DNA from: a virus
Taxonomy: Duplodnaviria > Heunggongvirae > Uroviricota > Caudoviricetes
Direction: 5' to 3' (one strand)
Virus record (IMG/VR): IMGVR_UViG_3300024308_000004
Location: 38,641-102,640 of that record
Length of the DNA stretch: 64,000 bases
Positions 23,299-63,812 of the stretch are shown here, in pieces (positions within the stretch are counted from its first letter, which is position 1; the number at the start of each line of letters is the position of its first letter). Position numbers and translations under genes: made by a program. The notes beneath the pieces are model-generated. The model had not been told where the DNA came from. It saw only the letters and a list, made by a program, of their open reading frames with translations, and searched no databases.

Positions 23299-23373
23299 AG
23301 GGCCGTAGCTGAGTGGTTTAGCTCTCGCCTTTTAAGCGAGTTGACGTGGGTTCGATCCCCACCGGCCCCACCA
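23299..23373 (+). tRNA. tRNA-Lys (anticodon TTT)
   Basis: Anticodon stem CTCGC/GCGAG with loop cTTTTaa. T-arm GTGGG-TTCGATC-CCCAC. 3' CCA encoded. Exact acceptor register uncertain. Confidence 0.7.
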
Positions 23374-23390
23374 ACATGAGTATCTTTAGG

Positions 23391-23466
23391 TGTGTGCGTT
23401 GACTGTATTGGTTCAGTCGCCTGATTGTGAGTCAGGAGCATGTGGGTTCAATTCCCATCGTACACC
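23391..23466 (+). tRNA. tRNA-His (anticodon GTG)
   Basis: Acceptor GTGTGCG/CGTACAC, D-stem GACT/AGTC, anticodon stem CCTGA/TCAGG with loop ttGTGag. T-arm GTGGG-TTCAATT-CCCAT. Position -1 is T, so no G-1 is encoded. C73. Confidence 0.7.
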
Positions 23467-23480
23467 CCTAAAGGTATTTA

Positions 23481-23568
23481 GGATAATTAGACGTTTAAGG
23501 AGAACGCCCCGGCTGTAACCCGGGTACCCTAACGGGTCCGCAAGGTTCGGTACCTTGATTATCCACCA
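23481..23568 (+). tRNA. tRNA-Tyr (anticodon GTA), class II with long variable arm
   Basis: Acceptor GGATAAT/ATTATCC plus A plus CCA. Anticodon stem CCCGG/CCGGG with loop ctGTAac. Variable-arm hairpin ACCC-taac-GGGT. T-arm CAAGG-TTCGGTA-CCTTG. Confidence 0.7.
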
Positions 23569-23692
23569 CATTGGACGTAAACGAAAAAGGCGTTATAGTA
23601 GGTAGAGTGCCGAGAACGCCTGAAAGACCCGAAGGTCTACGGACTAGTGAAGCTCTAGGCTCTACACGTCCAACCACACAGTAGGAGGTAAC

Positions 23693-23779
23693 ATGCTGAT
23701 CGTACAAGGCTTATTGTTCTTTGCCGTGATGCTCGCTGCCTTCTACGCCGTATGGAAAATCGGCACAACGAAAAAGTGA
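23693..23779 (+). CDS. Tiny hydrophobic peptide (28 aa) inside the tRNA island
   Basis: MLIVQGLLFFAVMLAAFYAVWKIGTTKK, preceded by an AGGAGG RBS. Confidence 0.2.
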   Translation: MLIVQGLLFFAVMLAAFYAVWKIGTTKK

Positions 23780-23859
23780 GGGGTCTTTATACCGTTAGGT
23801 GATTAGACTGTGGATACAAGTCGGGCTCTGTTGTTCACCCGAATCCTCACGAATGTTTA

Positions 23860-23936
23860 GGATTGTAAGCACAAGTGGTATATGCACCGGCCTGTTAAGC
23901 CGGGGACAGATGGTTCGAGTCCATCACAATCCGCCA
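23860..23936 (+). tRNA. tRNA-Asn (anticodon GTT)
   Basis: Acceptor GGATTGT/ACAATCC plus G plus CCA. Anticodon stem CCGGC/GCCGG with loop ctGTTaa. T-arm GATGG-TTCGAGT-CCATC. Confidence 0.7.
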
Positions 23937-24024
23937 GCCCGAATAGAGTCCGCATACAAAAACCGGGTAGCTCTCAATGGTTGTAGGTGACGATGGGTTT
24001 GTATAGGAACCTTCATGAATTCAT

Positions 24025-24101
24025 AGGCGCGTGGTGAAGTGGTCCAACACAGCAGACTTTGACTCTGCCATTCCTAGGTTCAAATCCTAGCGCGTCTGCC
24101 A
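24025..24101 (+). tRNA. tRNA-Gln (anticodon TTG)
   Basis: Acceptor AGGCGCG/CGCGTCT (one G-U pair) plus G plus CCA. Anticodon stem GCAGA/TCTGC with loop ctTTGac. T-arm CTAGG-TTCAAAT-CCTAG. Confidence 0.7.
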
Positions 24102-24120
24102 AACAACAAACGAGGACACT

Positions 24121-24393
24121 ATGAAAATCGGTGACATTGCAGCACACGGGCGTTACACTAACCGGATTGGTTTCGTTACTGCGGTCAACCACGCATCACA
24201 TGGTCCGATCAGTTCCTACGAAGTCGAGTGGCTGAACGGCTCGCAACAGGGCAAGCGGGATACGATTAGCGCATGGAACGTTGTTGACATGCAGGAAGCT
24301 CTGGAATCAGCGCGTGCCGAAGTCAACCGTCGTGAAAGCGACCTCATCAAGTGGTGTCACGCAGCAGCAATCGCAAAGATCGCCGTCAAGTAA
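24121..24393 (+). CDS. Hypothetical protein embedded in the tRNA island
   Basis: 90-aa ORF between tRNA-Gln and tRNA-Trp. Confidence 0.4.
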   Translation: MKIGDIAAHGRYTNRIGFVTAVNHASHGPISSYEVEWLNGSQQGKRDTISAWNVVDMQEALESARAEVNRRESDLIKWCHAAAIAKIAVK

Positions 24394-24397
24394 CAAA

Positions 24398-24473
24398 GTT
24401 TGGGTAGCTCAACAGGCAGAGCGCTGGTCTCCAAAACCAGAGGTTGTGAGTTCGACTCTCACCCCATTCGCCA
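24398..24473 (+). tRNA. tRNA-Trp (anticodon CCA), imperfect acceptor stem
   Basis: D-arm GCTC...GAGC. Anticodon stem CTGGT/ACCAG with loop ctCCAaa. T-arm GTGAG-TTCGACT-CTCAC. The acceptor GTTTGGG/CCCATTC has two U-U mismatches, so it may be a degenerate copy. Confidence 0.55.
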
Positions 24474-24563
24474 GTAAGAGCCGAAGTGAGAACTGGGGTA
24501 CGCCGCGAGGTCCCAGCGAGTCTGTTCCGACTATAAAAGTGTCTCACAAAGGCTCGATGTATC

Positions 24564-24639
24564 GCCGGTATAGCTCAGATGGTAGAGCAGCGCACTTGTA
24601 ATGCGCAGGTCCTGGGTTCGATGCCTAGTGCCGGCACCA
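24564..24639 (+). tRNA. tRNA-Thr (anticodon TGT)
   Basis: Clean cloverleaf. Acceptor GCCGGTA/TGCCGGC plus A plus CCA. D GCTC/GAGC. Anticodon stem GCGCA/TGCGC with loop ctTGTaa. T-arm CTGGG-TTCGATG-CCTAG. Confidence 0.85.
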
Positions 24640-24685
24640 CAAACCCGCTGTACGCCCCGGGGATAACGGGTGTACGACAAATTAC

Positions 24686-24762
24686 TGCGGGTTAGCTCAG
24701 TGGTTTAGAGCGTTCGGCTGATAACCGAGAGGTCGGGAGTTCAAATCTCTCACCCGCAACCA
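24686..24762 (+). tRNA. tRNA-Ile (anticodon GAT)
   Basis: Acceptor TGCGGGT/ACCCGCA plus A plus CCA. D GCTC/GAGC. Anticodon stem TTCGG/CCGAG with loop ctGATaa. T-arm GGGAG-TTCAAAT-CTCTC. Confidence 0.8.
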
Positions 24763-24896
24763 AAAGAGTCAGCGTGCGGGGTTCGAGACCCCGGTAGTCC
24801 GCGAGAGGGCTAAGTATTGCGGTACGACGTTGCACCTAAGTGACTATACTGGTATAGTCCGCTCCGGGGTCAGGCGTTATTGGCCTCATGTATTTA

Positions 24897-24973
24897 ACCG
24901 AGTGTAGCTCAATCTGGTGGAGCAACGCGTTTGGGGCGCGAAGGCTGGGAGTTCAAATCTCTCCGCTCGGACC
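24897..24973 (+). tRNA. tRNA-Pro (anticodon TGG)
   Basis: Acceptor CCGAGTG/CGCTCGG plus A plus CCA. D GCTC/GAGC. Anticodon stem CGCG/CGCG with loop ttTGGgg. T-arm GGGAG-TTCAAAT-CTCTC. Confidence 0.7.
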
Positions 24974-25170
24974 AAAAATGGAGGTGGTCTGCTAGGTGGA
25001 TTAGAAACCCATCGAGCATTGTTAGCCTCCAGATAAATGAGGTAGTTATTAGTAACGGCTGTAGGGCCGCCAACGTAAGACGCCTCAGATAAATAGGTGT
25101 TGAAACGGCCTTGTGTGGGCACTGTTCTGTTCCAACCTAGTTGCTAACAGTTCCAGACACCTAGATACAA

Positions 25171-25200
25171 AAAGGCCCCTCATTGAGGGGCCTTTTCTTT
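25171..25200. terminator. Bidirectional hairpin terminator AGGCCCCTC-att-GAGGGGCCT
   Basis: A runs precede and T runs follow the GC-rich stem. It closes the first tRNA block and also serves the convergent minus-strand ORF. Confidence 0.6.
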
Positions 25201-25364
25201 TACGAGCCTTGTGGCGGCTGTGCTTCCTGCAACTGCTGCACTTGGAACTCCAACATCTGAATACGACGAGACAGGTTAACAATCTGTGCCGGTGACGGGT
25301 CATCCCAGTTCGTCAGGGGTACAGCGTTGGGATCAAAGTCAAACGGTAAATCAGCCATCTCTAC
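25200..25364 (-). CDS. Possible minus-strand small protein (MADLPFDFDPN...)
   Basis: Internal ATG of minus ORF 25200-25421. Convergent with the bidirectional terminator. Acidic/Pro-rich N-terminus and Q-rich coiled C-terminus. Confidence 0.25.
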   Translation of the reverse strand, partial: VEMADLPFDFDPNAVPLTNWDDPSPAQIVNLSRRIQMLEFQVQQLQEAQPPQGS

Positions 25365-25421
25365 TACTCCTACTCCACGAATACAAGTGTCCATTGTCCC
25401 GCAAAAGTACATGCAGGTCAA

Positions 25422-25811
25422 ATGATTGCCACGTCATCCCTGTTCTATACTTGTCGCATGTTGATATACGCACGCACTCCAAAATCAAAACGCTACAAGC
25501 GTCCGGGCATGGGTGATGTAGCCAAGAAGTTACCCAAGCAGAAGTTCAAACCCAAAGCTGCGCCGAAAGAAACAAAGTTCCGCGCAGAAGGTACTGAAAA
25601 GTATCGCTCCAAGATTGACGAACACTTGGCGAATAACGAACCGGTCAACAAACAACCGTTACGTTATGAGGATGCAGACATGGCAGCACGCGAAGCGGAA
25701 GCGCAAAAAGAAATCAAGCGCAAGTCCGAATGCGTAGCGCCGGCATTCAACAAGGGAAATCTTACTTACATCGCTACCGAGGAACAAGCGAAGTGGGTAG
25801 GTAGAAAGTAA
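25422..25811 (+). CDS. Hypothetical basic (Lys-rich) protein
   Basis: ORF. Start uncertain, with alternative ATGs at 25458 and 25509. Confidence 0.35.
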   Translation: MIATSSLFYTCRMLIYARTPKSKRYKRPGMGDVAKKLPKQKFKPKAAPKETKFRAEGTEKYRSKIDEHLANNEPVNKQPLRYEDADMAAREAEAQKEIKRKSECVAPAFNKGNLTYIATEEQAKWVGRK

Positions 25812-25847
25812 CAAATCATCCGCAAAATCTCACTGAGGCTCGGTATA

Positions 25848-26111
25848 ATGCGTACCAACAAAGGCTTTACCCTCATCGAACTGATGATCGTGATGGCTAT
25901 TATTGGCATCCTGGCGTCGATCTTCTACCCCATGTGGCGTGATCGCAACCTGACGGACTATCAGCGCCAGCAAAAACGCGAAGCCCTGCAACGTGAGTAC
26001 GCCAACACAGGCGTCCGTTGCATCGGTGGTTACAAGTTTGCACAACCGGACTGGAACAATCCGCCCGTGCAGATCAAGGACAACACTGGTAACGGGATTC
26101 CGTGCCAGTAA
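25848..26111 (+). CDS. Type IVa prepilin-like protein
   Basis: N-terminus MRTNKG/FTLIELMIVMAIIGILASI: a short basic leader, then Gly-Phe and the conserved Glu5 hydrophobic helix. C-terminal Cys pair (C...C, ~28 aa apart) typical of the pilin disulfide D-region. The CGGTATAATG motif overlaps the start. Confidence 0.75.
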   Translation: MRTNKGFTLIELMIVMAIIGILASIFYPMWRDRNLTDYQRQQKREALQREYANTGVRCIGGYKFAQPDWNNPPVQIKDNTGNGIPCQ

Positions 26112-26225
26112 GTAAATGGTTAGAAGTGGTCGTCTAAACCTCCATGCAAGTCGGGAAGAGACTTGGGCTATTCGGATCAGGACACTGCCGTTTGAGGCAG
26201 AGATAATCTTCAACCAGATTTAAAC

Positions 26226-26310
26226 GGGCCGTTGGCGAAACAGGCATACGCAGCAGACTTAAAATCTGCCGGAGAAATCCATGAGGGTTCGATCCCCTCA
26301 CGGCCCACCA
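26226..26310 (+). tRNA. tRNA-Leu (anticodon TAA), class II
   Basis: Acceptor GGGCCGT/ACGGCCC plus A plus CCA (perfect). Anticodon stem GCAGA/TCTGC with loop ctTAAaa. Long variable arm. T-arm GAGGG-TTCGATC-CCCTC. Confidence 0.85.
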
Positions 26311-26326
26311 CTTTAGGAGATACACG

Positions 26327-26536
26327 ATGGACCTGTATGAAACGCTGGGCTTGAAGCGCCCAACCAAAGAAGAAATGGAAATGCACCACGTCGCAACGAT
26401 CGGCGACCTGGAAGTCAACGCGTCGGAACACCTGGTCAATGTCAAGTGCGACGGCGAAGTCATCCTGGCCATCATGCGCCACGATGGTGGCTTGCAGGAG
26501 CTGGTCGATGCCCTGCAATCGCAGGTCAAGCCGTGA
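26327..26536 (+). CDS. Hypothetical small protein
   Basis: 69-aa ORF with an AGGAG RBS. Confidence 0.35.
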   Translation: MDLYETLGLKRPTKEEMEMHHVATIGDLEVNASEHLVNVKCDGEVILAIMRHDGGLQELVDALQSQVKP

Positions 26537-26703
26537 CCAAGGAAGAGGGCGATCAGATTCGCCTAGCGTATGGCAAGGTACTGACATACGCGGACAAGGC
26601 GATGAAAACTCCACCAGGTGTGCATCGTCGGATCGCCTTGAACGAATACTCCAAGGCGAAGAATGAATTCCGGGCGTTGTTGCGATCCCTGGAAGGCAAG
26701 TAG
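26536..26703 (+). CDS. Hypothetical small protein
   Basis: GTG/ATG overlapping the upstream stop. Start uncertain; in-frame ORF from 26446. Confidence 0.3.
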   Translation, partial: TKEEGDQIRLAYGKVLTYADKAMKTPPGVHRRIALNEYSKAKNEFRALLRSLEGK

Positions 26704-26706
26704 GGA

Positions 26707-26779
26707 GTTCTAGTAGCTCAGTTGGTAGAGCAGCCGCCCTGTAAGCGGTGTGTCGGGGGTTCGAGTCCCTTCTAGTGTT
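26707..26779 (+). tRNA. tRNA, second Thr-like copy (anticodon TGT with atypical C33; no CCA)
   Basis: Acceptor GTTCTAG/CTAGTGT (one mismatch). D GCTC/GAGC. Anticodon stem GCCGC/GCGGT with loop ccTGTaa. T-arm GGGGG-TTCGAGT-CCCTT. Confidence 0.5.
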
Positions 26780-26946
26780 GACAAGGACACTTGTCATAGT
26801 AAACCCCGATCAGGATGATGCGTCCCTAGAAGACTTATTCATCCTTCTTAAGTAGGGTCAGATAGTTTAACGGCGAGAACGCCCTGCGAGCGCGGGGAAG
26901 TAGGGTTCGAGTCCCAGAAAACAGGTGTAATCACCTGGATCCGATC

Positions 26947-26985
26947 AAGGCGTATAACTATTGTGGTTATACGCCTTTCTTTTGT
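26947..26985 (+). terminator. Rho-independent terminator closing the tRNA island
   Basis: AAGGCGTATAAC-tattgtg-GTTATACGCCTT followed by TCTTTTGTT. Confidence 0.7.
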
Positions 26986-27080
26986 TCTAGGGCAGTGAAT
27001 TGTTCAATTAACACCGTGCGATTCTTAAACGCGCCGTGTAAATATTCTCTAAAATCACTGCACACAGACGAGAAAGTAAC

Positions 27081-28040
27081 ATGGATCATTTCAAGGACGT
27101 GAAGGTTGTTGATTCATCCGACACGAACGTTTCCAAGTATGTGTTTGACATGGGCTCGGCAGTCGCCGAAGCCGTACTGTATAAGTACGGAACCTATGAA
27201 GAACGTACCGTGATCTGTTGCTCCACCCAGTCAGGCTGCCCCATCGGTTGCCGTTTCTGCGGAGCCGGTGATGCGTTCGTTCGTAACCTGTCTGCGGAAG
27301 AAATCGTCGCGCAGGTGGATCATTTGTTCGCGGATCGCAACATCGATCCAACCCAGGTCAAGCGTGGACAGATCATGTTCATGTCCATGGGTGAACCGTT
27401 GCTGAACCTCAAGCAACTGATCCCGGCGATGGAGGTCCTGTACGCCAAGTACCCCAACTTCGCGTTGCTGATTTCGACCAGCGCTCCGCGAGTGGATTTC
27501 ACGCCGTTGTTCCGGGCAGCCGCGCTCATTCCGACCATTGGTTTGCAGTTCAGCGTCCACGAATCTACCGACGAGGCGCGTGACCGGCTGATCCCGTTCA
27601 AGAACAAGTACACCATCGCCGAGATTGCCATCCTCGGTGATATTTTCCACACCACTACGGGGCGTCAGGCGTTCTTCAACTACTGCGCCCATACGGACAA
27701 CACCGCGCAGGAAGATGCTGACCGCATCCACGCGCTGTTCAATCCTGCATCCTTCCAGGCAACGGTTTCGGTCATCTGCGAGCGGGATGAGTCCATCGCT
27801 GCTGCGAACGAACGACAGCGCGAACTTGCTACGGGATTCATGGGTAAGCTCTTGCAAAAGGGTTATTCCGTTCGCACATTCGACCCTGCTGGTCAGGACG
27901 ACATTGGAGGTGGCTGTGGTCAACTCTGGTTCGTGCAGGATTGGATGCGTCAACACCCTGATCTGGCCCGACCGTCCGTCGGTCGCGGGCTGCCCACTGT
28001 TCACACTCCACGAGCCATCGACGTAAAGGTGATCGAATGA
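27081..28040 (+). CDS. Radical SAM RNA methyltransferase, RlmN/Cfr family
   Basis: Family-specific signature ICCSTQSGCPIGCRFCGAG (CxSxQxGC-x3-C-x2-C) and FMSMGEPLLN (RlmN GMGEPLxN). At 319 aa it is shorter than bacterial RlmN. Confidence 0.8.
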   Translation: MDHFKDVKVVDSSDTNVSKYVFDMGSAVAEAVLYKYGTYEERTVICCSTQSGCPIGCRFCGAGDAFVRNLSAEEIVAQVDHLFADRNIDPTQVKRGQIMFMSMGEPLLNLKQLIPAMEVLYAKYPNFALLISTSAPRVDFTPLFRAAALIPTIGLQFSVHESTDEARDRLIPFKNKYTIAEIAILGDIFHTTTGRQAFFNYCAHTDNTAQEDADRIHALFNPASFQATVSVICERDESIAAANERQRELATGFMGKLLQKGYSVRTFDPAGQDDIGGGCGQLWFVQDWMRQHPDLARPSVGRGLPTVHTPRAIDVKVIE

Positions 28041-28315
28041 CCCAAGAAGTAGAGGTATCCGATGACAGCGAGCCAGCTGAAATCGAAGGCGAAATCCTTG
28101 AAGCGGACGACCTGACGTACTTCGTCTCCGGACCTTCGTGTGGCTTCATCGTCCAGGGCAAGCAATACATCAAGCCCATGACCATTGCGGCGTGCATGAT
28201 TAACGGCGACCCCGAGGAAGCATACACGCACCAGCAGGTCAAGTCCGTCGCAGTCGTTCCGCAACAGCCGTCAGTCCATCTGATGACCCGTCGCCACAAT
28301 ACCACCTTGCATTGA
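28037..28315 (+). CDS. Hypothetical acidic protein
   Basis: ORF overlapping the rlmN-like stop. Confidence 0.35.
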   Translation: MTQEVEVSDDSEPAEIEGEILEADDLTYFVSGPSCGFIVQGKQYIKPMTIAACMINGDPEEAYTHQQVKSVAVVPQQPSVHLMTRRHNTTLH

Positions 28316-28322
28316 GGCATTC

Positions 28323-28535
28323 ATGTTCGATCCCGCAATTACCGACCTTTACAAGCGCGCCCATGAACTGCGCAACGCCCAGCGGAACTACATCGCAGAC
28401 GGCACGCGCAACGAAATCCTGGGCCGAGAAGTCCACAACGCAGCCGAACGTCTCGATGCGGCGTTGCAAGTCGTAGAAGATGAAGGCTACATTGCGGAGA
28501 AGGATATCCGCGACGTGCGCCCGGTGACGCCGTAA
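28323..28535 (+). CDS. Hypothetical protein
   Basis: 70-aa ORF. Confidence 0.35.
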   Translation: MFDPAITDLYKRAHELRNAQRNYIADGTRNEILGREVHNAAERLDAALQVVEDEGYIAEKDIRDVRPVTP

Positions 28536-28708
28536 TGTGGGTCTTGATCCTGACCCTGGCGATGCGTGGTCAAGCTGTTACGGTAACCACGCAGGACGGC
28601 TTCGCGTCGCAGGAATCCTGCATGATCGCCGCGAAGGCATGGACGGAACAGGTTGAAAGGATGCCACTCAGCAATCTGCACCGACGCGCCCTTTGTGTCC
28701 GCAAGTAA
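28535..28708 (+). CDS. Small secreted/membrane-anchored protein (57 aa)
   Basis: MWVLILTLAMRGQA signal-like N-terminus. Under 60 aa, so not in the ORF track. Confidence 0.3.
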   Translation: MWVLILTLAMRGQAVTVTTQDGFASQESCMIAAKAWTEQVERMPLSNLHRRALCVRK

Positions 28709-28884
28709 GCCCGTTACTTAACGCTTCTAGGTCTTCACGAAACGCGTATACTAATCACATGTCGCAGCGATCTACATCCGCTGCGATAACAGAACCAAGC
28801 GTGATGGCTTGTGGTTGTCACAGAGGGTGACACTAATGACCGGGGTAGTGCCCGGGTACCCTTCGACTCTGGTGGGAAGCCAGA

Positions 28885-29006
28885 GACCATAAGAAGTTCT
28901 GCTGTCCAACACCCGCATTAACGTGATGCCGGTGTAAGCAAAGTCCTAGTCGATTACCTCCTAGTTGCCGAATAGGACGGACAGGGCAGCAGAACTTCTT
29001 ATGGTC
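28885..29006. repeat. Perfect 20-bp inverted repeat forming a ~120-nt stem-loop (GACCATAAGAAGTTCTGCTG ... CAGCAGAACTTCTTATGGTC)
   Basis: Arms at 28885-28904 and 28987-29006 in a 310-nt noncoding region. The 3' arm abuts the GAGGAG RBS of the gene starting at 29019. Confidence 0.6.
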
Positions 29007-29018
29007 GAGGAGATTCAC

Positions 29019-29216
29019 ATGTCTGCCAAAGAAGTAGAACTGCCGCGCGGGGATACGTTTGATTCCCAGATGCGCAGGTACACCTTCAGTGAGGGTCAGG
29101 TGCGTGATATCCTGACCATCTATACCCAGAAACAGCAGGATGAAATTGATCGCCTGCGTTCTGAGGTTGACGGTTTGAAAATGAGTATCGCCCTTGCTGA
29201 AATGGGCGATGAATAA
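29019..29216 (+). CDS. Hypothetical protein
   Basis: ATG at 29019 after a GAGGAG RBS (in-frame ORF from 28965). Confidence 0.4.
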   Translation: MSAKEVELPRGDTFDSQMRRYTFSEGQVRDILTIYTQKQQDEIDRLRSEVDGLKMSIALAEMGDE

Positions 29217-29241
29217 CCACAGACGTTGATGGAAAGAAATC

Positions 29242-29592
29242 ATGTCAAAGCCTGATGCGGCGTTGTTCGTTCTGGTAGGCAGGAAGCCGGCCTACAACAA
29301 GATTTTCTTGGCGCCAAAGTCCGCGTTGCAGTGGTGCTATAACGCGGACTACGGTGACCAGCCAATACCAAGGAACGTTCTTGGTGATCTGACACCGTTC
29401 CTGGACTCGGATTACGATGGCGATCCTGCAACGGACACGTTTGACATTACTCCGGGGTCTGCCGATAATGACGTAGCGCTGGCGTTGAGCCAAGTATGCC
29501 GCGCGTTCAAGAGTCCGATTGAAGCGATGGAATATGCGTTCGCGCATTACACCGTCAATTCGGCTGACTGCTACACGGGTCTGGAATATTGA
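29242..29592 (+). CDS. Hypothetical protein
   Basis: 116-aa ORF immediately upstream of the tmRNA gene. Confidence 0.5.
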   Translation: MSKPDAALFVLVGRKPAYNKIFLAPKSALQWCYNADYGDQPIPRNVLGDLTPFLDSDYDGDPATDTFDITPGSADNDVALALSQVCRAFKSPIEAMEYAFAHYTVNSADCYTGLEY

Positions 29593-29927
29593 CCTAGGTT
29601 TATGGTTGTATGACGTGAAGTGAAGGGTGCTTGGACGGTGGTTCAACTCCACCCAGGTCCACCACAAATCAGTCTTAGTCGAGGTGCCGGCGTTACTGGC
29701 TGAGACTGATTTGTAATGGGCCTGCCGGGTTTCGACAGGCGCAGATAGCAGAACCGACAACTAAGGGTAGGCACTCCTTGACGCACACGCGTCGATAGTC
29801 CACAATAAAACATAATCGCCAATGACGACATGTTTGTGGTGGCCCTCGCGGCCTGATCCACTGGGGTCTTGAACGACCTTATTACCCAATAGTTCACGAT
29901 AAGCCCGAGGTCCGCCTCGGGCTTTTT
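29593..29927 (+). ncRNA. ssrA: Circularly permuted (two-piece) tmRNA gene
   Basis: Acceptor piece ending ~29664 with T-arm GGTGG-TTCAACT-CCACC and CAGGTCC-A-CCA. Inter-piece hairpin 29665-29713. Coding piece starts at 29718 with GGGCCTGCCGGGTTTCGACAGG, so G3:U70 plus A73. Tag ORF 29818-29856 (ANDDMFVVALAA then stop). Terminator 29902-29927. Confidence 0.8.
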
Positions 29928-29987
29928 CGTTGTGCAGCATCCCATATTTAACCTAGATATAGTGATTGCACACACTGGAGAACGTCA

Positions 29988-30430
29988 TGACCACGTATGC
30001 AGTAGTTGATCCACGGGATATCCGTGACGACGCGGAGCAGGCTGAACTGGGCCTGACACGACTGCTCGGTATACGGTTCGAGGAACTTGCCGATGAAGTC
30101 TACGAGGACGAAGAAAACAATACCTTCGGATGGTTCGGTCTGCGTAAGGTCCAGAAGCGCTACAGCCGTCGCCAGATCGGTCAGTGGATGCAGGAAATCC
30201 TGAACGACGCACCACGCAGCAAGGACAATGGCATCCGCGATTACTGGTCAGCGCAAGGCACACAGTTCTCCTACGCTGGCTACAAGCATCACGTCATCGA
30301 TCCGGTACGTGACCTGATCCGTGCGGCGCGTGACCTGAACACGCAGGAACTACGCGTTGACGCGCGTACCATGCGTCTGTTTGAGGATGCGTATGCTGCG
30401 GGCGCTCGCCGTTACGAGCCCGAAGAATAA
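29988..30430 (+). CDS. Hypothetical protein
   Basis: ORF; start at ATG 29988 or 29966. Confidence 0.45.
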
Positions 30431-30460
30431 TCAACACACAATCACACGCACATACAAACC

Positions 30461-30967
30461 ATGAAAGCCATTCAGAAAATCATCCTCGACGGGTCGACCA
30501 CGCAAGTGAACCTGATCGACAACGATGCGGTCGAGGTCCACCACGTACCGCTCGCAGAGCTGCCGTTCTTCCTGATCGAACTGGCAGTGACGGACAAGGG
30601 CATCGATGCTGCCGCCACTGCGACGATCACTCACTCGCCGGAAATCGTACAGGCTATCCAGGACGTGAAGACTGCCCTGGCAGGTATCGGACTGGATGCA
30701 ACCACAGCAGGCGTGTTTGCAACGACCTTCTGCGGCGATACCCGGGACGAAATCACTGCCATGTCGGACTCGGTATTGAACGCCATCGCCAAGCTGCTGC
30801 GTGAATCTGGCTTCAAGTCCAAGGCGTTCGATGGACGTTCGTACACGGGCAATCTGACCTGTGTTGAATGGCTGGAAGGATTCCGTTACGGTTTCATCCG
30901 TGCGTCGGATGAAAAGCTCCAGCAGGAACTGGAAGGCATGTTGCAGCCCGAGATTGGTGCATGGTAA
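30461..30967 (+). CDS. Hypothetical protein
   Basis: 168-aa ORF. Confidence 0.45.
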   Translation: MKAIQKIILDGSTTQVNLIDNDAVEVHHVPLAELPFFLIELAVTDKGIDAAATATITHSPEIVQAIQDVKTALAGIGLDATTAGVFATTFCGDTRDEITAMSDSVLNAIAKLLRESGFKSKAFDGRSYTGNLTCVEWLEGFRYGFIRASDEKLQQELEGMLQPEIGAW

Positions 30968-31037
30968 TCAACCGTCATTTCATCATGACGCCGTTTGTTA
31001 CCAGTACATAATACTCACGCAACGCAAACAACTTAAC

Positions 31038-31129
31038 GGGTACGTGACTGAGCTAGGCTTAAGGTGCCGGTCTTGAAAACCGATGACGGGGTGACTCGTC
31101 CGTGGGTTCAAATCCCACCGTACCCTCCA
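31038..31129 (+). tRNA. tRNA-Ser (anticodon TGA), class II
   Basis: Acceptor GGGTACG/CGTACCC plus T plus CCA (perfect). Anticodon stem CGGT/ACCG with loop ctTGAaa. Long variable arm. T-arm GTGGG-TTCAAAT-CCCAC. Confidence 0.85.
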
Positions 31130-51686: not shown

Positions 51687-52068
51687 GTTCAACGGTCCCC
51701 TATAGGGTTGGGAGGTTTTCCCGGGGAGCCCTATAGGGGATTTTTCATATATAAGTACCAACACGTCTAGTATTAGGACTCGGCACCGTCCCGGTGCCTT
51801 CACAAAGCTGAATCAAATGGCGTGGCATGGTGTGGGTCGAACACAGGGTTTATCGGGTACCGATATAAATCGCTTGTGTGCCGTGTATGTACGTGTTACG
51901 CGTGCGCGCGTTCATTTATATGCGCTGAGTCCGTATGCACCACATACCCAATGTCGGCTGGAACATTGACGCATTTAACGCCACGTTCTATGCAATATCC
52001 CGGAACATGTGACTTGTAGCCGTTCGCAGCCAGCTACAATATAACGACACTCTCACGGATTTAACGAA

Positions 52069-56452: not shown

Positions 56453-57139
56453 ATGACAGAAGAGGAATTAGAAGCCACAGCGCTCGCTACGATGCGAGCA
56501 GTAATTGAAGCCGACAAAGAATTGACGGCCATCGCCGCGTTGGAAACCAAGATCACTACCTTGGAAGCGAGAATACCGCCGGGTGTGATGGCAACGCCGG
56601 CTCCATCGCGCTTTATGGAAACGACATTTGCAGATGGTTCTTGGGAAGTCAAAGATTTAGATGGCGTAACCCGTGTACGCTTTGGCGTGTGGGGAGAAAC
56701 CCAAGAAATACCGGCTGATAATGATTCAACACAACAGGCACTCACAATGGATTTCAACAACACCGACATTCTGAAACAGCGGTTATTCCGCGACAAGGCG
56801 ATCATCGCCATGCACGTATTGCGGGTGACGAAGCCGCAAGGTGATAAGGGTAAAGGTATCGGCCCGAATCGTGAAGATCACCCCCTGTTCCGCGAAGTGG
56901 TGCATATGTGGATGCAGGGCGCTGAAATCACTGGTGAGAATCTCGACAAGGTCGAACAAGCCCGTGAACGCGTCACCAAGTACGCCAAGCAACTGCGCAA
57001 TAGCATTTACTTGGGTCCGATTGTCAATCCGGATTACAAACGGGCAGAAATGTTGGAATCGGTCCAACATGCCTACAAAGAACAAGCCGAGGCTGAACTT
57101 GCCCAGGCTCTGAGGGAGGAAACGTATGGCGGCTGGTAA
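56453..57139 (+). CDS. Hypothetical protein
   Basis: ATG at 56453 within ORF 56438-57139. Confidence 0.45.
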   Translation: MTEEELEATALATMRAVIEADKELTAIAALETKITTLEARIPPGVMATPAPSRFMETTFADGSWEVKDLDGVTRVRFGVWGETQEIPADNDSTQQALTMDFNNTDILKQRLFRDKAIIAMHVLRVTKPQGDKGKGIGPNREDHPLFREVVHMWMQGAEITGENLDKVEQARERVTKYAKQLRNSIYLGPIVNPDYKRAEMLESVQHAYKEQAEAELAQALREETYGGW

Positions 57140-57914
57140 TATCACCGAACAGGTAGCGATCATCGGCAAAATTGCAGCCGAAGGAGACCTTCTTGGTGTG
57201 GAAGAAGCTCGCGGTCAGATGATCCGAACATTGGTGTTGTCTGATCCGCTGTCCTCGGTCCGTGTCGCAGCAGGTGAAGTGGCAGGTCGGATTGGCGTGT
57301 TGGCAGCATATCTGCCACCGGAACTCGGCAATGAAGCCCTGCGGTTGTTCGACGCAACCCATCCGATCTTCGGCAGGGTCATCCCCGACGACCTGGAGTC
57401 GGCACTTACTACTGGCAAGCAGCTGGGCAAGCAATTTGCCCTGAAAAAGCAAATCGAGGCTGAAAACGCCAAGAAGCTCAAACAGGCTGCTGAACTCGGC
57501 GTAGTTCTCCCCGACGGTGAAGAAGAAGTCACCTCGGACCAGGCAGCCAGGATCCTGAATGCCACACGCAAGAAGCGTGCGGAATCCGGTGATGCAATGG
57601 CTGTCAAGGAAATGGAAGAACTCAAGGATTGGGAAACCGAACGCGCAGCCCGTGTCCGAGCCGAAGAACTCGCAGCCATGTCTGATCCTGCCGAGGAAGA
57701 AGAGGAAGAAGACGACGAGGGAGAATACGAGGATTGCCCCGAATGTGGCGAAGATTACTACCTCAAGGCTGAAGGTTGTCACGGCTGTGGTTACAGGACC
57801 CCTGAGGTTGCAAGCGCAGAAGAAGCCGCACGCAAAAAGGAAGCTGCTGCCCATGACGCCGCAATCGCAGCCGCTCGCGCAGCACCCAAGGTTGACTACG
57901 ATTCCCCGTTCTAA
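57126..57914 (+). CDS. Hypothetical protein with helical-repeat N-terminus and C-terminal zinc ribbon
   Basis: CPECGEDYYLKAEGCHGCGY. Glu-rich acidic stretch EEEEEDDEGEYED. Confidence 0.45.
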   Translation: MAAGNITEQVAIIGKIAAEGDLLGVEEARGQMIRTLVLSDPLSSVRVAAGEVAGRIGVLAAYLPPELGNEALRLFDATHPIFGRVIPDDLESALTTGKQLGKQFALKKQIEAENAKKLKQAAELGVVLPDGEEEVTSDQAARILNATRKKRAESGDAMAVKEMEELKDWETERAARVRAEELAAMSDPAEEEEEEDDEGEYEDCPECGEDYYLKAEGCHGCGYRTPEVASAEEAARKKEAAAHDAAIAAARAAPKVDYDSPF

Positions 57915-59610: not shown

Positions 59611-60032
59611 GCGAAACCACCACACCCACCATGTACGCACGCGTCACGGCATATAAGAACATCCTGGTCATCGAATGGCTGACGGAAACATCCGATGACA
59701 ACGTGGTCACGCCGTATGATAAACCCGGTAATCTCGGGTATGTCTGCAACGACACCAATCTGATCGGTGTCAGTGACGAGGCTTACCAGATCCTCAAGAA
59801 TCAGATCAAGCGCAGTAGTGACGCCATCGGTGAAATCGATGCTTTCCGTTGCGATGATGGCCGGTACGCCTTCGCAACACTGGGTGGTAAGTACAGCCTG
59901 GTGGATCCGAAACACGCCGCAGGTAGTAGGACCTACGAATGCCCGGATCGTGGATCCTTCCAGGTCATTGACAACGAATCGCCCCAAGGCGCGCGTGAAG
60001 CAATCGACGCCGAAGTCCCGGACGAAGCATAA
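59607..60032 (+). CDS. Hypothetical protein
   Basis: 141-aa ORF followed by terminator ACCCGG-cctaaaaca-CCGGGT plus TTT (60047-60080). Confidence 0.4.
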   Translation: MSETTTPTMYARVTAYKNILVIEWLTETSDDNVVTPYDKPGNLGYVCNDTNLIGVSDEAYQILKNQIKRSSDAIGEIDAFRCDDGRYAFATLGGKYSLVDPKHAAGSRTYECPDRGSFQVIDNESPQGAREAIDAEVPDEA

Positions 60033-60746
60033 CCGGCAAGCCACAAGTAAACACCGACCCGGCCTAAAACACCGGGTTTTATGTTCCACGTGAAACACCA
60101 CCCCAAACCACATAAAAATCAAGATCATACACACCAAACCCGCCCCAGGTATAAAGTACAACCCTAAACCCGCGTGAAACACATGGCGTGGAACATTTTC
60201 CGCAAAAAGACATATACCGTATGTAGCAGAAACCTAAATACGAAATCCCGGATCAGACTCAAAAATTTTCCCCTATATACATACAGGATCATAGGTAAGA
60301 GCAAATTTTCAAGCCAGAAAAACAAGACATATCAGTAATCACGTACATATCGAACCATGAAAACCATGTGTAGTAGACATAGCGAAATTCCTTAGGGAGG
60401 TATGATTCCGGTATGTACGTGTGTACCTAGAGAGGGAAGAATCATATAGGGGTGAAGTTCCGGTGTGTATGTATAGGTGTAGTGTAGAAAGAAAAACCTT
60501 GCCGTGGCCTATAAGGAGTGTACCGTGTCCTGACCATAAGGCGGCATGGCAAAGTAAGGTAAGGCCAGGAACCCGTCCCCACGCCACCCCGCCCCAACCC
60601 ACACCAATCCTAGCCACCTGCACGGTAAGGCATGGCATGGGCCTATTAGGTAAGCCGTGAAACAAATCCCAGCCCAGCGTGAAAAATCCCTCTCCGGCCC
60701 AGTATATAATCTGTTTGTCAGCTTTTAACACACCAAGGAAAACAAC
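60033..60746. other. 714-nt noncoding A/C-rich region with multiple short direct repeats (candidate origin or regulatory hub)
   Basis: CGTGAAACA x3-4, TTCCGGTRTGTAYGT x2 (60402-60472), ATAAGG x5, GGCATGG x3, C-rich tracts CCCACGCCACCCCGCCCCAACCCACACC. No ORF of 60 aa or more with an RBS. Confidence 0.5.
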
Positions 60747-61085
60747 ATGACTGAAACCGTACTGGAATCATACGACCCCGTAACCCTGCTGGAACTCCAG
60801 GCAGCTTTCGGGATGCTGATTCAAAATAACCCCTCTCTGGTACAACTTGTCAACGCCACCGCACCGGTACTCTTTGCCACCATGCTTTTCAGTGCCAGTT
60901 CTGATTACCGGGTCACTGAAGACGGTGAAGGCGTCGAAGCCCAGCTTAACGCCATGGAAGCACTTGAAGTCGCCCGGGGTCACCTGGAATCGGTCGCTCA
61001 GGCTTTCGGTATTGCAGAAGGTAGCATTGCCGTGGAACCCAGTGATAGTGAGATTGACCAGGATACAGAAATCAACCCGGTGTAA
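60747..61085 (+). CDS. Hypothetical acidic protein
   Basis: ORF followed by terminator AACCCGGT-gtaa-ACCGGGTT plus TTTTTT (61073-61097). Confidence 0.4.
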   Translation: MTETVLESYDPVTLLELQAAFGMLIQNNPSLVQLVNATAPVLFATMLFSASSDYRVTEDGEGVEAQLNAMEALEVARGHLESVAQAFGIAEGSIAVEPSDSEIDQDTEINPV

Positions 61086-61182
61086 ACCGGGTTTTTTGTT
61101 CTAGGGTATGTCTAGCTCCATTTCATCCCTTATGTAATATACATACGTGCAACAAGCACACATCACTCACAAGGAGGACCTC

Positions 61183-62181
61183 GTGTCCCAGAGCAACAAA
61201 ATCCGTCTGATCGCTCCGACCATGACCCACGACACCTCGGGCCCGCTGGAAGTCGAGTCGGACTGGAATCCCACCAAGATCGCCAAGGTCCTGGCCAGCC
61301 TGCTGGTTGCGGGTTTCCGTGAAGGTAGCATCGCCGACTCGGACCTGTCCAACATCATCGATGAACTGGACGGCGTGGGCGAAGCGCTCGGCGCCAAGCT
61401 CAACCTGGATGCACGCTACACCGAGTCCACCTCGGAAGCCGCTCGCAAGATCCCCGGCATCCTGGGCCTGCTGTATATCAGCAACATCACCCAGGGTCTG
61501 GCGTTCGGCAAGATGACCCGTGACCCGGCAGTTGCACTGGCGCTGTATCAGACCTGGGCCGAAGCGCACGTCGAACTCACCAGTCAGGATCAGCTGGATA
61601 CCAACGCCACTGCCCGTCTGCTGGAACTGACCGGCTCGAACGACGAAGGCGAGTACCCCGAAGAACTCGTCGCCGAGTACGTCGAGAACTTCAACGAAGC
61701 CGGGTGCGTTTGTGGCAAGGAGCATCCCCGTGCCGGTCAGCTGACCAAGGCCACCGTGCAGGACCTGTCGGGCGAAGCACTTCTGGAGACCATTCCGGAA
61801 GAAGTGCGCCCGCTGCTGGGAATGCTGTCGCTGACCACGGGCAAGTCGGAAATCGAAATCACCGAGGCCCTGCGTGATGCGTTCCTGGCTGGTGAAGACC
61901 CCGGTGTGGCCATGCAGCGTCTGGTCGTGGAATCCCTGGGCGGCAAGGTCACCAAGACCTCGGCACCGAAGGCCCGCGTCACGGATGTGGGCACGGTGGA
62001 AGTCGATACCACCCAGGACGTCGTGGAACAGCTCTACCAGCAGACCGTGCAGAACATGCCGGGCCTGCGTCCGGACCAGTACCAGGCGATTCGTGACCAG
62101 CTGGAAGAACAGCGCGCCGAAATCGTCGCAGCCGGTCGTACTGGTGGCGTCCACGCCCTGCGTGTGAAGCTGCCGAAGTAA
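61183..62181 (+). CDS. Hypothetical protein (333 aa)
   Basis: GTG start after an AAGGAGG RBS (in-frame ORF from 61147). Strong terminator follows. Confidence 0.5.
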   Translation: MSQSNKIRLIAPTMTHDTSGPLEVESDWNPTKIAKVLASLLVAGFREGSIADSDLSNIIDELDGVGEALGAKLNLDARYTESTSEAARKIPGILGLLYISNITQGLAFGKMTRDPAVALALYQTWAEAHVELTSQDQLDTNATARLLELTGSNDEGEYPEELVAEYVENFNEAGCVCGKEHPRAGQLTKATVQDLSGEALLETIPEEVRPLLGMLSLTTGKSEIEITEALRDAFLAGEDPGVAMQRLVVESLGGKVTKTSAPKARVTDVGTVEVDTTQDVVEQLYQQTVQNMPGLRPDQYQAIRDQLEEQRAEIVAAGRTGGVHALRVKLPK

Positions 62182-63320: not shown

Positions 63321-63812
63321 GTAACCTATAGGGGTGGTGAAAAAATCACCCCTATTTGGTGTGCCGCATAGCCCCATGCCATCCCAAGCCAAATGAAAAC
63401 TTCTCCCTATAGCAAAAATCGTGCTATGTAAGATCACATACCCGGTTATAGCGGGAAAGCTCATGGGACGCTCAACCCGCTGCTTCCTCTGAGTCTACAG
63501 CTACACAGCTACATTCATACAAAAGGTGAGCTATCCCGACGCTTGGGCCGAGTTGGGCTGATTTTTGGGCTGATTCGCCCATAGGGAAAAATTTGCCATA
63601 GGCGAAAATTGCTATAAATACGAGGCCAGCTTCTGTATTAGGGTCCCGAGGGATGGTCGCACCCCACGGTATAAGGTACGGGATGGGATGGGCCGATCCT
63701 TGGCATGGTATGGGATGGCGCAATACGGGAAACGTACCAGCCCGACAAAAAGCGCTTGCACCCATATGCGCGTGTGACACTATATAAGTACATTCACAGC
63801 GAGATGCGACAC
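63321..63812. other. 492-nt noncoding region with iteron-like repeats
   Basis: GCCATAGG(G/C)GAAAAWTT x2, (T)ATGGGATGG x3, CACGGTATAAGG, hairpin GGGGTG-gtgaaaaaat-CACCCC. Shares the ATAGGGGTG and GGCATGG motifs with 60033-60746. Confidence 0.45.

Follow-up and report, generated by a model that had tools for sequence, protein, structure and literature searches.

Introduction

In the ParABS system of bacterial chromosomes, ParB nucleates at parS sites, spreads from them as clamps in a manner that depends on cytidine triphosphate (CTP), and serves as an adaptor to ParA and SMC, as set out in two reports (PMC7053999, PMC8494293). The binding consensus of chromosomal ParB, TGTTNCACGTGAAACA, is nearly universal, and the half-parS heptamers GTTCCAC and GTTTCAC are occupied in vivo by the ParB of Pseudomonas aeruginosa and by several other ParBs (PMC7022226). 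The exact parS of Bacillus subtilis is TGTTCCACGTGAAACA (PMC4333373), and Xanthomonas citri, which belongs to the family of the host considered here, has a chromosomal ParB with the parS TGTTCCACGTGGAACG (PMC3937727). The present study concerns a 64,000-nt stretch of phage DNA (positions 38,641 to 102,640 of IMG/VR record IMGVR_UViG_3300024308_000004, Caudoviricetes; hereafter the window), in which a gene-free region of 714 nt at 60033-60746 (hereafter the gap) contains a perfect parS of the chromosomal type.

Two described elements come closest to this arrangement. Bacillus phage phi29 carries five host-type parS sites, and the host protein Spo0J helps to segregate the phage genome into the prespore (PMC2731898). 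Salmonella genomic island 1 (SGI1) is reported to have an orphan parS that exploits the parABS system of an IncC plasmid (PMC10954446). A host-type parS on a lytic phage and the hijacking of a partition system through an orphan parS are already known.

Like phi29, the window phage appears to be virulent and has host-ParB-type sites without a ParABS system of its own. Unlike phi29, a protein-primed podophage with five dispersed sites, it is a 108-kb siphophage with DnaE-type replication, and it has one full site plus half-sites within a conserved promoter and terminator hub. Its host is Gram-negative and does not sporulate, so that spore entrapment is ruled out as the purpose. With SGI1 it shares a parS that acts in cis while the element itself has no cognate genes, whereas SGI1 is an integrative element relying on a plasmid-type system and the site here is of the chromosomal type and lies on a phage. 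The palindrome is the same 16 bp as in chromosomal ParABS and is likewise accompanied by GTTCCAC/GTTTCAC heptamers, as for P. aeruginosa ParB (PMC7022226); unlike the chromosomal system, the locus belongs to a phage genome, has a single full site, has neither an adjoining parAB nor a demonstrated origin, and comes without a phage-encoded ParA. What is new is that a clade of siphophages with Gram-negative hosts has one strictly conserved parS, that half-sites keep fixed distances to it around a promoter-like element, and that this region is associated with a family of pentamer arrays. If the host ParB does load there, the phi29 paradigm would also hold for Gram-negative hosts that do not sporulate, and for a pathogen relevant to phage therapy; ANB28, a close relative of the window phage, is a component of a phage cocktail against Stenotrophomonas maltophilia.

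A single parS site maintained in close relatives

The parS of the gap (Table 1) comes immediately after the terminator and is the only match to TGTTNCACGTGNAACA in the window, where 0.01 would be expected. Relatives were obtained through a protein database and contig look-ups: the gene downstream of the gap, which encodes a 112-aa protein, has homologues in 16 protein clusters, and contigs were taken for eight of these. One extra contig (L142) came from a metagenome pattern scan; pattern scans of IMG/VR, genomes and metagenomes were mostly empty. The window phage is related to the Stenotrophomonas phages BUCTxx99 and ANB28, with about 70-83% nucleotide identity around the gap, and more remotely to Xanthomonas phage JGB6.

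The complete genome of BUCTxx99 contains exactly one match to the parS consensus, at the homologous position. Its sole substitution, A to G at the degenerate position 12, yields the Pseudomonas-type palindrome TGTTCCACGTGGAACA. A perfect copy stands at the homologous place in ANB28 and in the contigs L004, L005, L011 and L142; in all, seven to eight relatives have a perfect site there. In addition, L005 has a second copy (15/16) in mid-gap and L015 a 15/16 copy between pentamer arrays, with the mismatch at the outermost base 1. Conservation among relatives, with substitution at the homologous site only at a degenerate position, is the pattern of a site maintained by selection. The situation in JGB6 is different in place: its gap has two half-sites and no full site, and a perfect parS of the form TGTTCCACGTGGAACA lies 2.5 kb upstream of the gap (2818-2833 of contig L003), inside a coding sequence whose homologue in the window (57126-57914) has none. 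On these comparisons a parS is maintained in this genome segment irrespective of its exact context, which favours a ParB function at the level of DNA over a part in one particular promoter. The CACGTG palindromes listed in the plural by the original prediction, an earlier reading of the same DNA, amount to one occurrence, at 60087.

Among other viral sequences, one 116-kb IMG/VR contig (among L072; L054, L075, L086 and similar) has 12 parS copies within 5 kb, and several contigs of about 11 kb, which come from one sample, have at either end two parS sites that are 42 nt apart.

Half-parS sites around a promoter-like element

The sequence CGTGAAACA, previously counted three to four times and labelled iteron-like, occurs exactly three times (60089, 60173 and 60656), as parts of parS and of half-parS sites. 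These copies are the only ones on the plus strand of the window, and 0.03 would be expected in the gap. The gap also contains CGTGGAACA at 60187 and CGTGAAAAA at 60678. In total it has five half-parS heptamers, four of them besides parS, where about 0.2 would be expected; elsewhere in the window such heptamers are not enriched.

parS and the two invariant half-sites flank the promoter-like element TATAAAG, and the distances from parS to this element (68-69 nt) and to the half-sites (about 92 and 106 nt) are fixed in seven relatives. JGB6 has two GTTCCAC copies at the equivalent place in the opposite orientation, and this orientation-independence points to recognition of double-stranded DNA. 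The element itself, TATAAAGTAC, is the most widely conserved piece of the gap: it is found in 9 of 10 relatives, even the distant JGB6, L007 and L013 among them, and stands 68-69 nt from the start of parS wherever parS is present. No convincing -35 accompanies it, and we treat it as a putative promoter element.

Table 1. Features in and next to the gap, with positions in the window
Feature	Positions	Strand	Remarks
Intrinsic terminator of the upstream gene	60057..60080	+	Stem ACCCGG/CCGGGT, 9-nt loop, TTTT; hairpin 60057-60077 plus T-run
A+C-rich, G-poor tract	60081..60360	+	A 41%, C 26%, G 14%; holds parS, the TATAAAG-type element and two half-sites
Perfect chromosomal-type parS, TGTTCCACGTGAAACA	60082..60097		16/16 against the consensus TGTTNCACGTGAAACA; predicted ParB nucleation site
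-10-like element TATAAAGTAC (TATAAAG)	60150..60159	+	Preceded by CCCAG(G); same CCCAG-TATA context as the downstream gene's own promoter
Two direct half-parS sites, CGTGAAACA-N5-CGTGGAACA	60173..60195	+	Invariant in all close relatives; +92 and +106 from parS
G+T-rich variable segment	60361..60500	+	Two TTCCGGT repeats (60406-60427, 60458-60479); poorly conserved
Pentamer GG array, 6 units	60543..60569	+	GGCAT GGCAA AGTAA GGTAA GGCCA GGAAC; in conserved block B
Pentamer GG array, 8 units	60579..60615	-	C-rich on the plus strand; longest array in the window
Pentamer GG array, 4-6 units	60624..60650	+	GGTAA GGCAT GGCAT GGGCC TATTA GGTAA
Additional half-parS, CGTGAAACA	60656..60664	+	In the window and L004 only; within a 14-nt indel in BUCTxx99 and ANB28
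Sigma-70-like promoter (predicted) of the 112-aa gene	60679..60710	+	-35-like GTGAAA 60679-60684, 18-nt spacer, TATATA(AT) 60703-60710
Gene for a very acidic 112-aa protein	60747..61085	+	77-98% identical in relatives

A candidate loading platform for the host ParB

We consider it likely that the gap holds a host-type ParB-loading platform within a control region rich in terminators and promoters. That ParB binds, which ParB does so, and to what biological purpose, we infer from sequence comparison. The host chromosomal ParB would be the most economical binder, because no ParA is found in the phage and the ParB-like proteins of the phage family fit the site poorly. Two ParB_N-domain proteins are encoded beside the terminase genes, 15 kb from parS. 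They match ParB/Noc over the N-terminal domain only, their GERRxR (CTP-motif) region is degenerate, and they gave no match to a helix-turn-helix (HTH) or parS-binding domain. Pseudomonas phage nickie has a homologue at the same position, annotated as a ParB-like partition protein, and yet has no parS in its whole genome. No ParA-type ATPase is recognisable in the window or in the BUCTxx99 annotation, and neither a cognate ParA nor an HTH-containing ParB adjoins parS as in a self-contained parA-parB-parS module. What was seen of the ParB_N proteins and of nickie also counts against the possibility that a phage-encoded protein, either one of the two ParB_N proteins beside the terminase genes or an HTH regulator, binds the sites, which would then be an operator set for the TATAAAG promoter and the downstream cassette, or the site of a ParB-like nuclease or packaging accessory. 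That the family encodes ParB_N-domain proteins at all, that the sites keep fixed distances around a promoter-like element, and that the positions of extra copies vary among relatives as operators may do speak in its favour. Selection for recognition by the host ParB, however, predicts just such a 16/16 match to the host type with variation limited to the degenerate position, and we regard a phage-encoded binder as unlikely.

If the host ParB is the binder, it would recognise the 16-bp palindrome and nucleate there after infection, close into CTP-bound clamps and spread to flanking DNA, leaving on each phage genome a mark resembling a partition complex. With such a mark, phage DNA might be positioned or inherited by means of host ParA or SMC, for instance when an infection stalls or enters a carrier state; ParB bound to parS and to the half-sites might also gate local promoters and titrate ParB off the host chromosome. 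Positioning or inheritance, promoter gating and ParB titration could each apply and are not rankable with confidence, and partition or hitchhiking alone has a direct precedent, in phi29. A more elaborate version, rather unlikely as a whole, would make the host ParB both sensor and handle. The TATAAGT-class promoter(s) would stay under repression by ParB until the replication of phage DNA titrates it, as a copy-number timer, and/or ParB would partition genomes in slow-growing carrier cells, and the (GGNAT)n-GGGCC arrays described below would be sites of a new short-repeat DNA-binding protein organising the same 14-kb early/cassette region. A parS could support carrier states or pseudolysogeny, affect the persistence of phage genomes in non-lysing cells, or disturb host chromosome segregation, and one 16-bp site is a simple, directly testable handle.

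Several observations weigh against a host-ParB platform. The distant relatives L006/L007/L008 and L013/L014 are without parS in the 6-16 kb compared; since it is not found there or in the whole nickie genome, parS appears to be clade-specific and not essential to this type of phage. With at least 120 IMG/VR contigs containing the exact 16-mer, to find it in viral DNA is unexceptional as such. For the Stenotrophomonas parS, the consensus of the family is taken as a stand-in, and the phage ParB_N proteins could still be the binders. Block A of the gap (defined below) and the neighbouring gene were not found in species-representative bacterial genomes, that is, no resident plasmid or prophage copy was seen, and ANB28 is reported as lytic and without an integrase. 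A classical partition role would therefore be one without a known carrier state.

Alternative explanations for the gap

The original prediction had taken the repeats for iterons and offered three roles for the gap: a phage replication origin, a packaging (pac) site, or a dense promoter/operator cluster. The last came nearest, the gap being a conserved non-coding stretch with protein-binding-type repeats, a terminator and a promoter; its repeats, however, are one perfect chromosomal-type parS and half-parS sites instead of iterons. As an origin, or one of several, the gap would have the 9-mers as initiator boxes, the A/C tract as an unwinding element and the internal promoter as the source of transcriptional activation. 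The repeat cluster is unique in the genome, the 280-nt tract is A+T-rich (60% vs 46% in the window) with the most extreme strand asymmetry of the window and a change of skew sign near 60360, and bacterial parS sites cluster near origins (PMC7022226). The gap also resembles iteron origins such as lambda ori and P1 oriR in being non-coding, with clustered short repeats and a skewed tract. Unlike them, it has no 17-22-bp iterons (its direct repeats are short and weak), no DnaA box (TTATCCACA, up to one mismatch), no IHF consensus, no skew inflection and no initiator-like gene beside it; the flanking genes are without a family match and the replication genes lie 40-60 kb upstream. The tests by which an origin was rejected also included scans for CRP sites, FtsK-orienting polar sequences (KOPS), Chi and sigma-54 sites. 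Cumulative GC skew, proposed earlier as a check, has its minimum at about 33-34 kb and its maximum at about 11 kb of the complete BUCTxx99 genome and leaves the gap (19.2-19.9 kb) on the slope; relative to the gap, the minimum falls about 14 kb downstream, and the maximum corresponds to about 51.5 kb of the window. GC skew in phages is confounded by transcription and hence weak evidence. With its repeats fully explained as parS and half-parS and a far more iteron-like GTTCAGC array about 4.7 kb downstream, the gap is probably not a replication origin, and the origin model as formulated above seems quite improbable. The pac proposal is unlikely as well: the TerS-like and TerL genes of BUCTxx99 are at 37.5-39.4 kb, 18 kb from the gap, whereas a pac or cos site would be expected within the small-terminase gene or beside it, and contigs that end in the gap do so at six different positions.

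A purely transcriptional account would make the gap mainly the boundary of a transcription unit, with a terminator, an untranslated C-rich stretch of the Rho-utilisation (rut) type and a tandem pair or series of promoters driving strong expression of an early gene, and parS incidental. It accommodates the compensatory changes of the terminator, the invariant promoter block, the second promoter-like element with the same CCCAG-TATA context, the neighbouring cassettes that each have their own terminator and promoter, and the composition of the 280-nt tract, G-poor and C-rich in the manner of a rut site. It leaves unexplained the invariant half-sites and a perfect 16-bp parS that is conserved in eight relatives, re-created elsewhere in JGB6, and expected by chance at 0.01 per window; we hold it to be very improbable. 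Least probable of all, and in our view hardly credible, is that a structured non-coding RNA or a small protein is specified by the gap. The ORFs (open reading frames) of 54-130 aa could be cited for it, and so could a hairpin in the window whose stem measures 13 bp (z about -1.8 to -2.2). The hairpin, however, lies in the variable segment and is lost in BUCTxx99 (z 0.18), block B folds no better than shuffled sequence, and the consensus fold of six relatives is without covariation support (term +0.41) or compensatory helices; folding of block B and of the A/C-to-G/T segment, as RNA and as DNA, likewise yielded nothing that is conserved. No Rfam match at E<=1 was obtained for 58-64 kb, reading frames switch between relatives, and the repeat motifs occur in both orientations.

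The GTTCAGC array is a separate feature past the window end. Its roughly 12 GTTCAGC copies are arranged in three units of about 40 nt (14520-14810 of L004), about 4.7 kb to the right of the gap, upstream of a 199-aa ORF and beside a short ORF that is HTH-like; in JGB6 the corresponding place (8790-8900 of L003) has repeats of GAACGGTTCAGC. As a candidate for an iteron or operator region, the array surpasses the gap. Of the skew extremes, the minimum coincides with a divergent junction between a leftward helicase gene and ParB-like genes, and the maximum (about 51-52 kb of the window) with the first intergenic region that has a pentamer array, where gene orientation does not change.

Boundaries, composition and conservation of the gap

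The gap is bounded by a 141-aa ORF ending at 60032 and by the 112-aa ORF starting at 60747. It had been described as gene-free, with no ORF of 60 aa or more preceded by a ribosome-binding site. Its non-coding character is borne out, but ORFs of 79 and 130 aa do exist: the 54- and 79-aa ORFs are on the plus strand and the 130-aa ORF is on the minus strand. Since no reading frame is kept in relatives when all six are compared, none of these ORFs is a gene. The A/C-rich, strand-asymmetric composition ascribed to the whole region is confined to the tract at 60081-60360; no other 280-nt stretch of the window is as rich in A+C or as poor in G (+4.7 standard deviations). This profile persists in all relatives despite sequence divergence, with 65-75% A+C over about 300 nt followed by about 40-48%.

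Lack of syntenic conservation had been named as the outcome that would count against a functional region, and the opposite was found. In every relative contig that reaches far enough, a stretch of 550-780 nt without genes stands upstream of the 112-aa gene. Conservation is patchy. Block A (60056-60216) is about 90% identical; a variable middle and block B (60500-60650) follow, and the promoter block (60664-60746) is nearly invariant. The order of elements is kept even in the distant JGB6, L007 and L013, in which the sequence itself has diverged. Judged by these comparisons, the gap appears as a conserved intergenic control region rich in terminators and promoters. Its matches to other intergenic regions are 12-17 nt long, and paralogy with them was not detected.

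A direct repeat of about 24 nt had been placed at 60402-60472. The repeat is weak, 14 of 22 positions being identical, but TTCCGGT is indeed common to both copies (60406 and 60458); it is kept only in the closest relative. A mini-CRISPR (clustered regularly interspaced short palindromic repeats) reading of these repeats, with a 24-nt repeat and a spacer of about 32 nt, was discarded, the repeats being 64% identical with a shared core of 7-12 nt. Between the window and the metagenomic phage L004, identity is 97-100% across the gap except for an island at 60337-60460 (64-72%, with an 11-nt indel). The island surrounds the two TTCCGGT repeats, and about 45 nt are locally replaced there between short direct repeats. 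Six independent metagenomic contigs (L008, L009, L010, L012, L014 and L015) end inside the gap, 100-484 nt upstream of the 112-aa gene. A physical terminus or common assembly break was considered and dropped, the six ends being at six different positions; they are probably assembly breaks at repeats or at strain-variable sequence.

Terminator, downstream promoter and neighbouring genes

The terminator and the promoter-like AGTATATAAT at 60701, both noted before, hold up in relatives. The hairpin and T-run of the terminator are kept with compensatory stem changes: CCGGG/CCCGG in L005, GGGGC/GCCCC in L011, CCGCGT/ACGCGG in JGB6 and GGGGCG/CGCCCC in L142. AGTATATAAT is invariant and belongs to a promoter block of which about 45 nt are nearly invariant in close relatives, more conserved than coding sequence. 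With -35 and -10 hexamers at conserved 18-nt spacing, 60679-60710 is presumably active as a promoter, and the gap has the features of a boundary between an intrinsic terminator and a sigma-70 promoter.

Neither the 112-aa protein nor the flanking small genes gave a PHROGs or Pfam match, and the predicted structure of the 112-aa protein was poor (predicted local distance difference test, pLDDT, 61) and unfit for a fold search. The 344-aa ORF at 61147-62181 shares only 50% identity with its homologues in BUCTxx99 and ANB28, compared with 88-89% for the adjoining 112-aa ORF, and there is no family match for either. The gene upstream of the gap differs between relatives.

Pentamer-periodic GG arrays

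The downstream half of the gap contains a second repeat family, in which GG recurs every 5 nt with the unit consensus GG[G/C/T]AT, often ending in GGGCC. Motifs formerly listed as iteron-like are fragments of this family, which also occurs in other intergenic regions. GGCATGG is present three times as stated (60543, 60629 and 60634); ATAAGG, given as five copies, occurs twice, and it is the shorter TAAGG that occurs five times. Comparison with the repeats at 63321-63812 showed that pentamer arrays are indeed common to both regions: further arrays of the window lie at 51819-51835, 63364-63390 and 63675-63728. Arrays of five or more units occur at 0.2 per shuffle, and no eight-unit array is expected by chance.

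Every relative has such arrays, and an array ending ...GGGAT GGGCC (TAT) recurs in all of them. In BUCTxx99, 10 of 11 arrays are intergenic, between 11.2 and 24.7 kb; the arrays are found nowhere but in intergenic DNA of the final 14 kb or so of the rightward gene block and mark one particular segment of these genomes. Both orientations are represented, no stable or covarying RNA fold results, and we read the arrays as candidate sites of a putative DNA-binding protein. CsrA/RsmA sponge and TRAP-like RNA target readings were considered and set aside, the arrays being on both strands and GGA not being a conserved core; a G-quadruplex reading was set aside because the G4 potential is not conserved. 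Plasmids have centromere and operator arrays in which small dimeric regulators bind to short repeats that adjoin one another, such as the omega heptads of pSM19035 and the ParR and ParG sites. The pentamer arrays resemble these in having contiguous short units in direct and inverted blocks upstream of several promoters of one segment, and differ in that their 5-nt unit (GGNAT) is shorter than any of those. In nickie, a gene-free stretch of 1.1 kb at a comparable genome place (8393-9486 of contig L140, equal to 100392-101485) has about eight GCCGCGG repeats; this different repeat fits clade-specific pairs of regulator and site.

Genome context

The window phage is a siphophage with a genome of about 108-110 kb and has genes for a DnaE-type polymerase, DnaB, ligase, SbcCD, ribonucleotide reductase and RtcB. 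In the complete genome of BUCTxx99 (109 kb), almost all genes point rightward in a single block of about 100 kb, in the order packaging, structure, replication, tRNAs, nucleotide metabolism and small genes. This block converges on a leftward block of 8 kb, and the gap lies about 6 kb ahead of the convergence point, among small gene cassettes with a terminator and a promoter each. The window also has a transfer-messenger RNA (tmRNA) at 29572-29947, with the tag ANDDMFVVALAA, and 12 tRNAs within 23299-31129.

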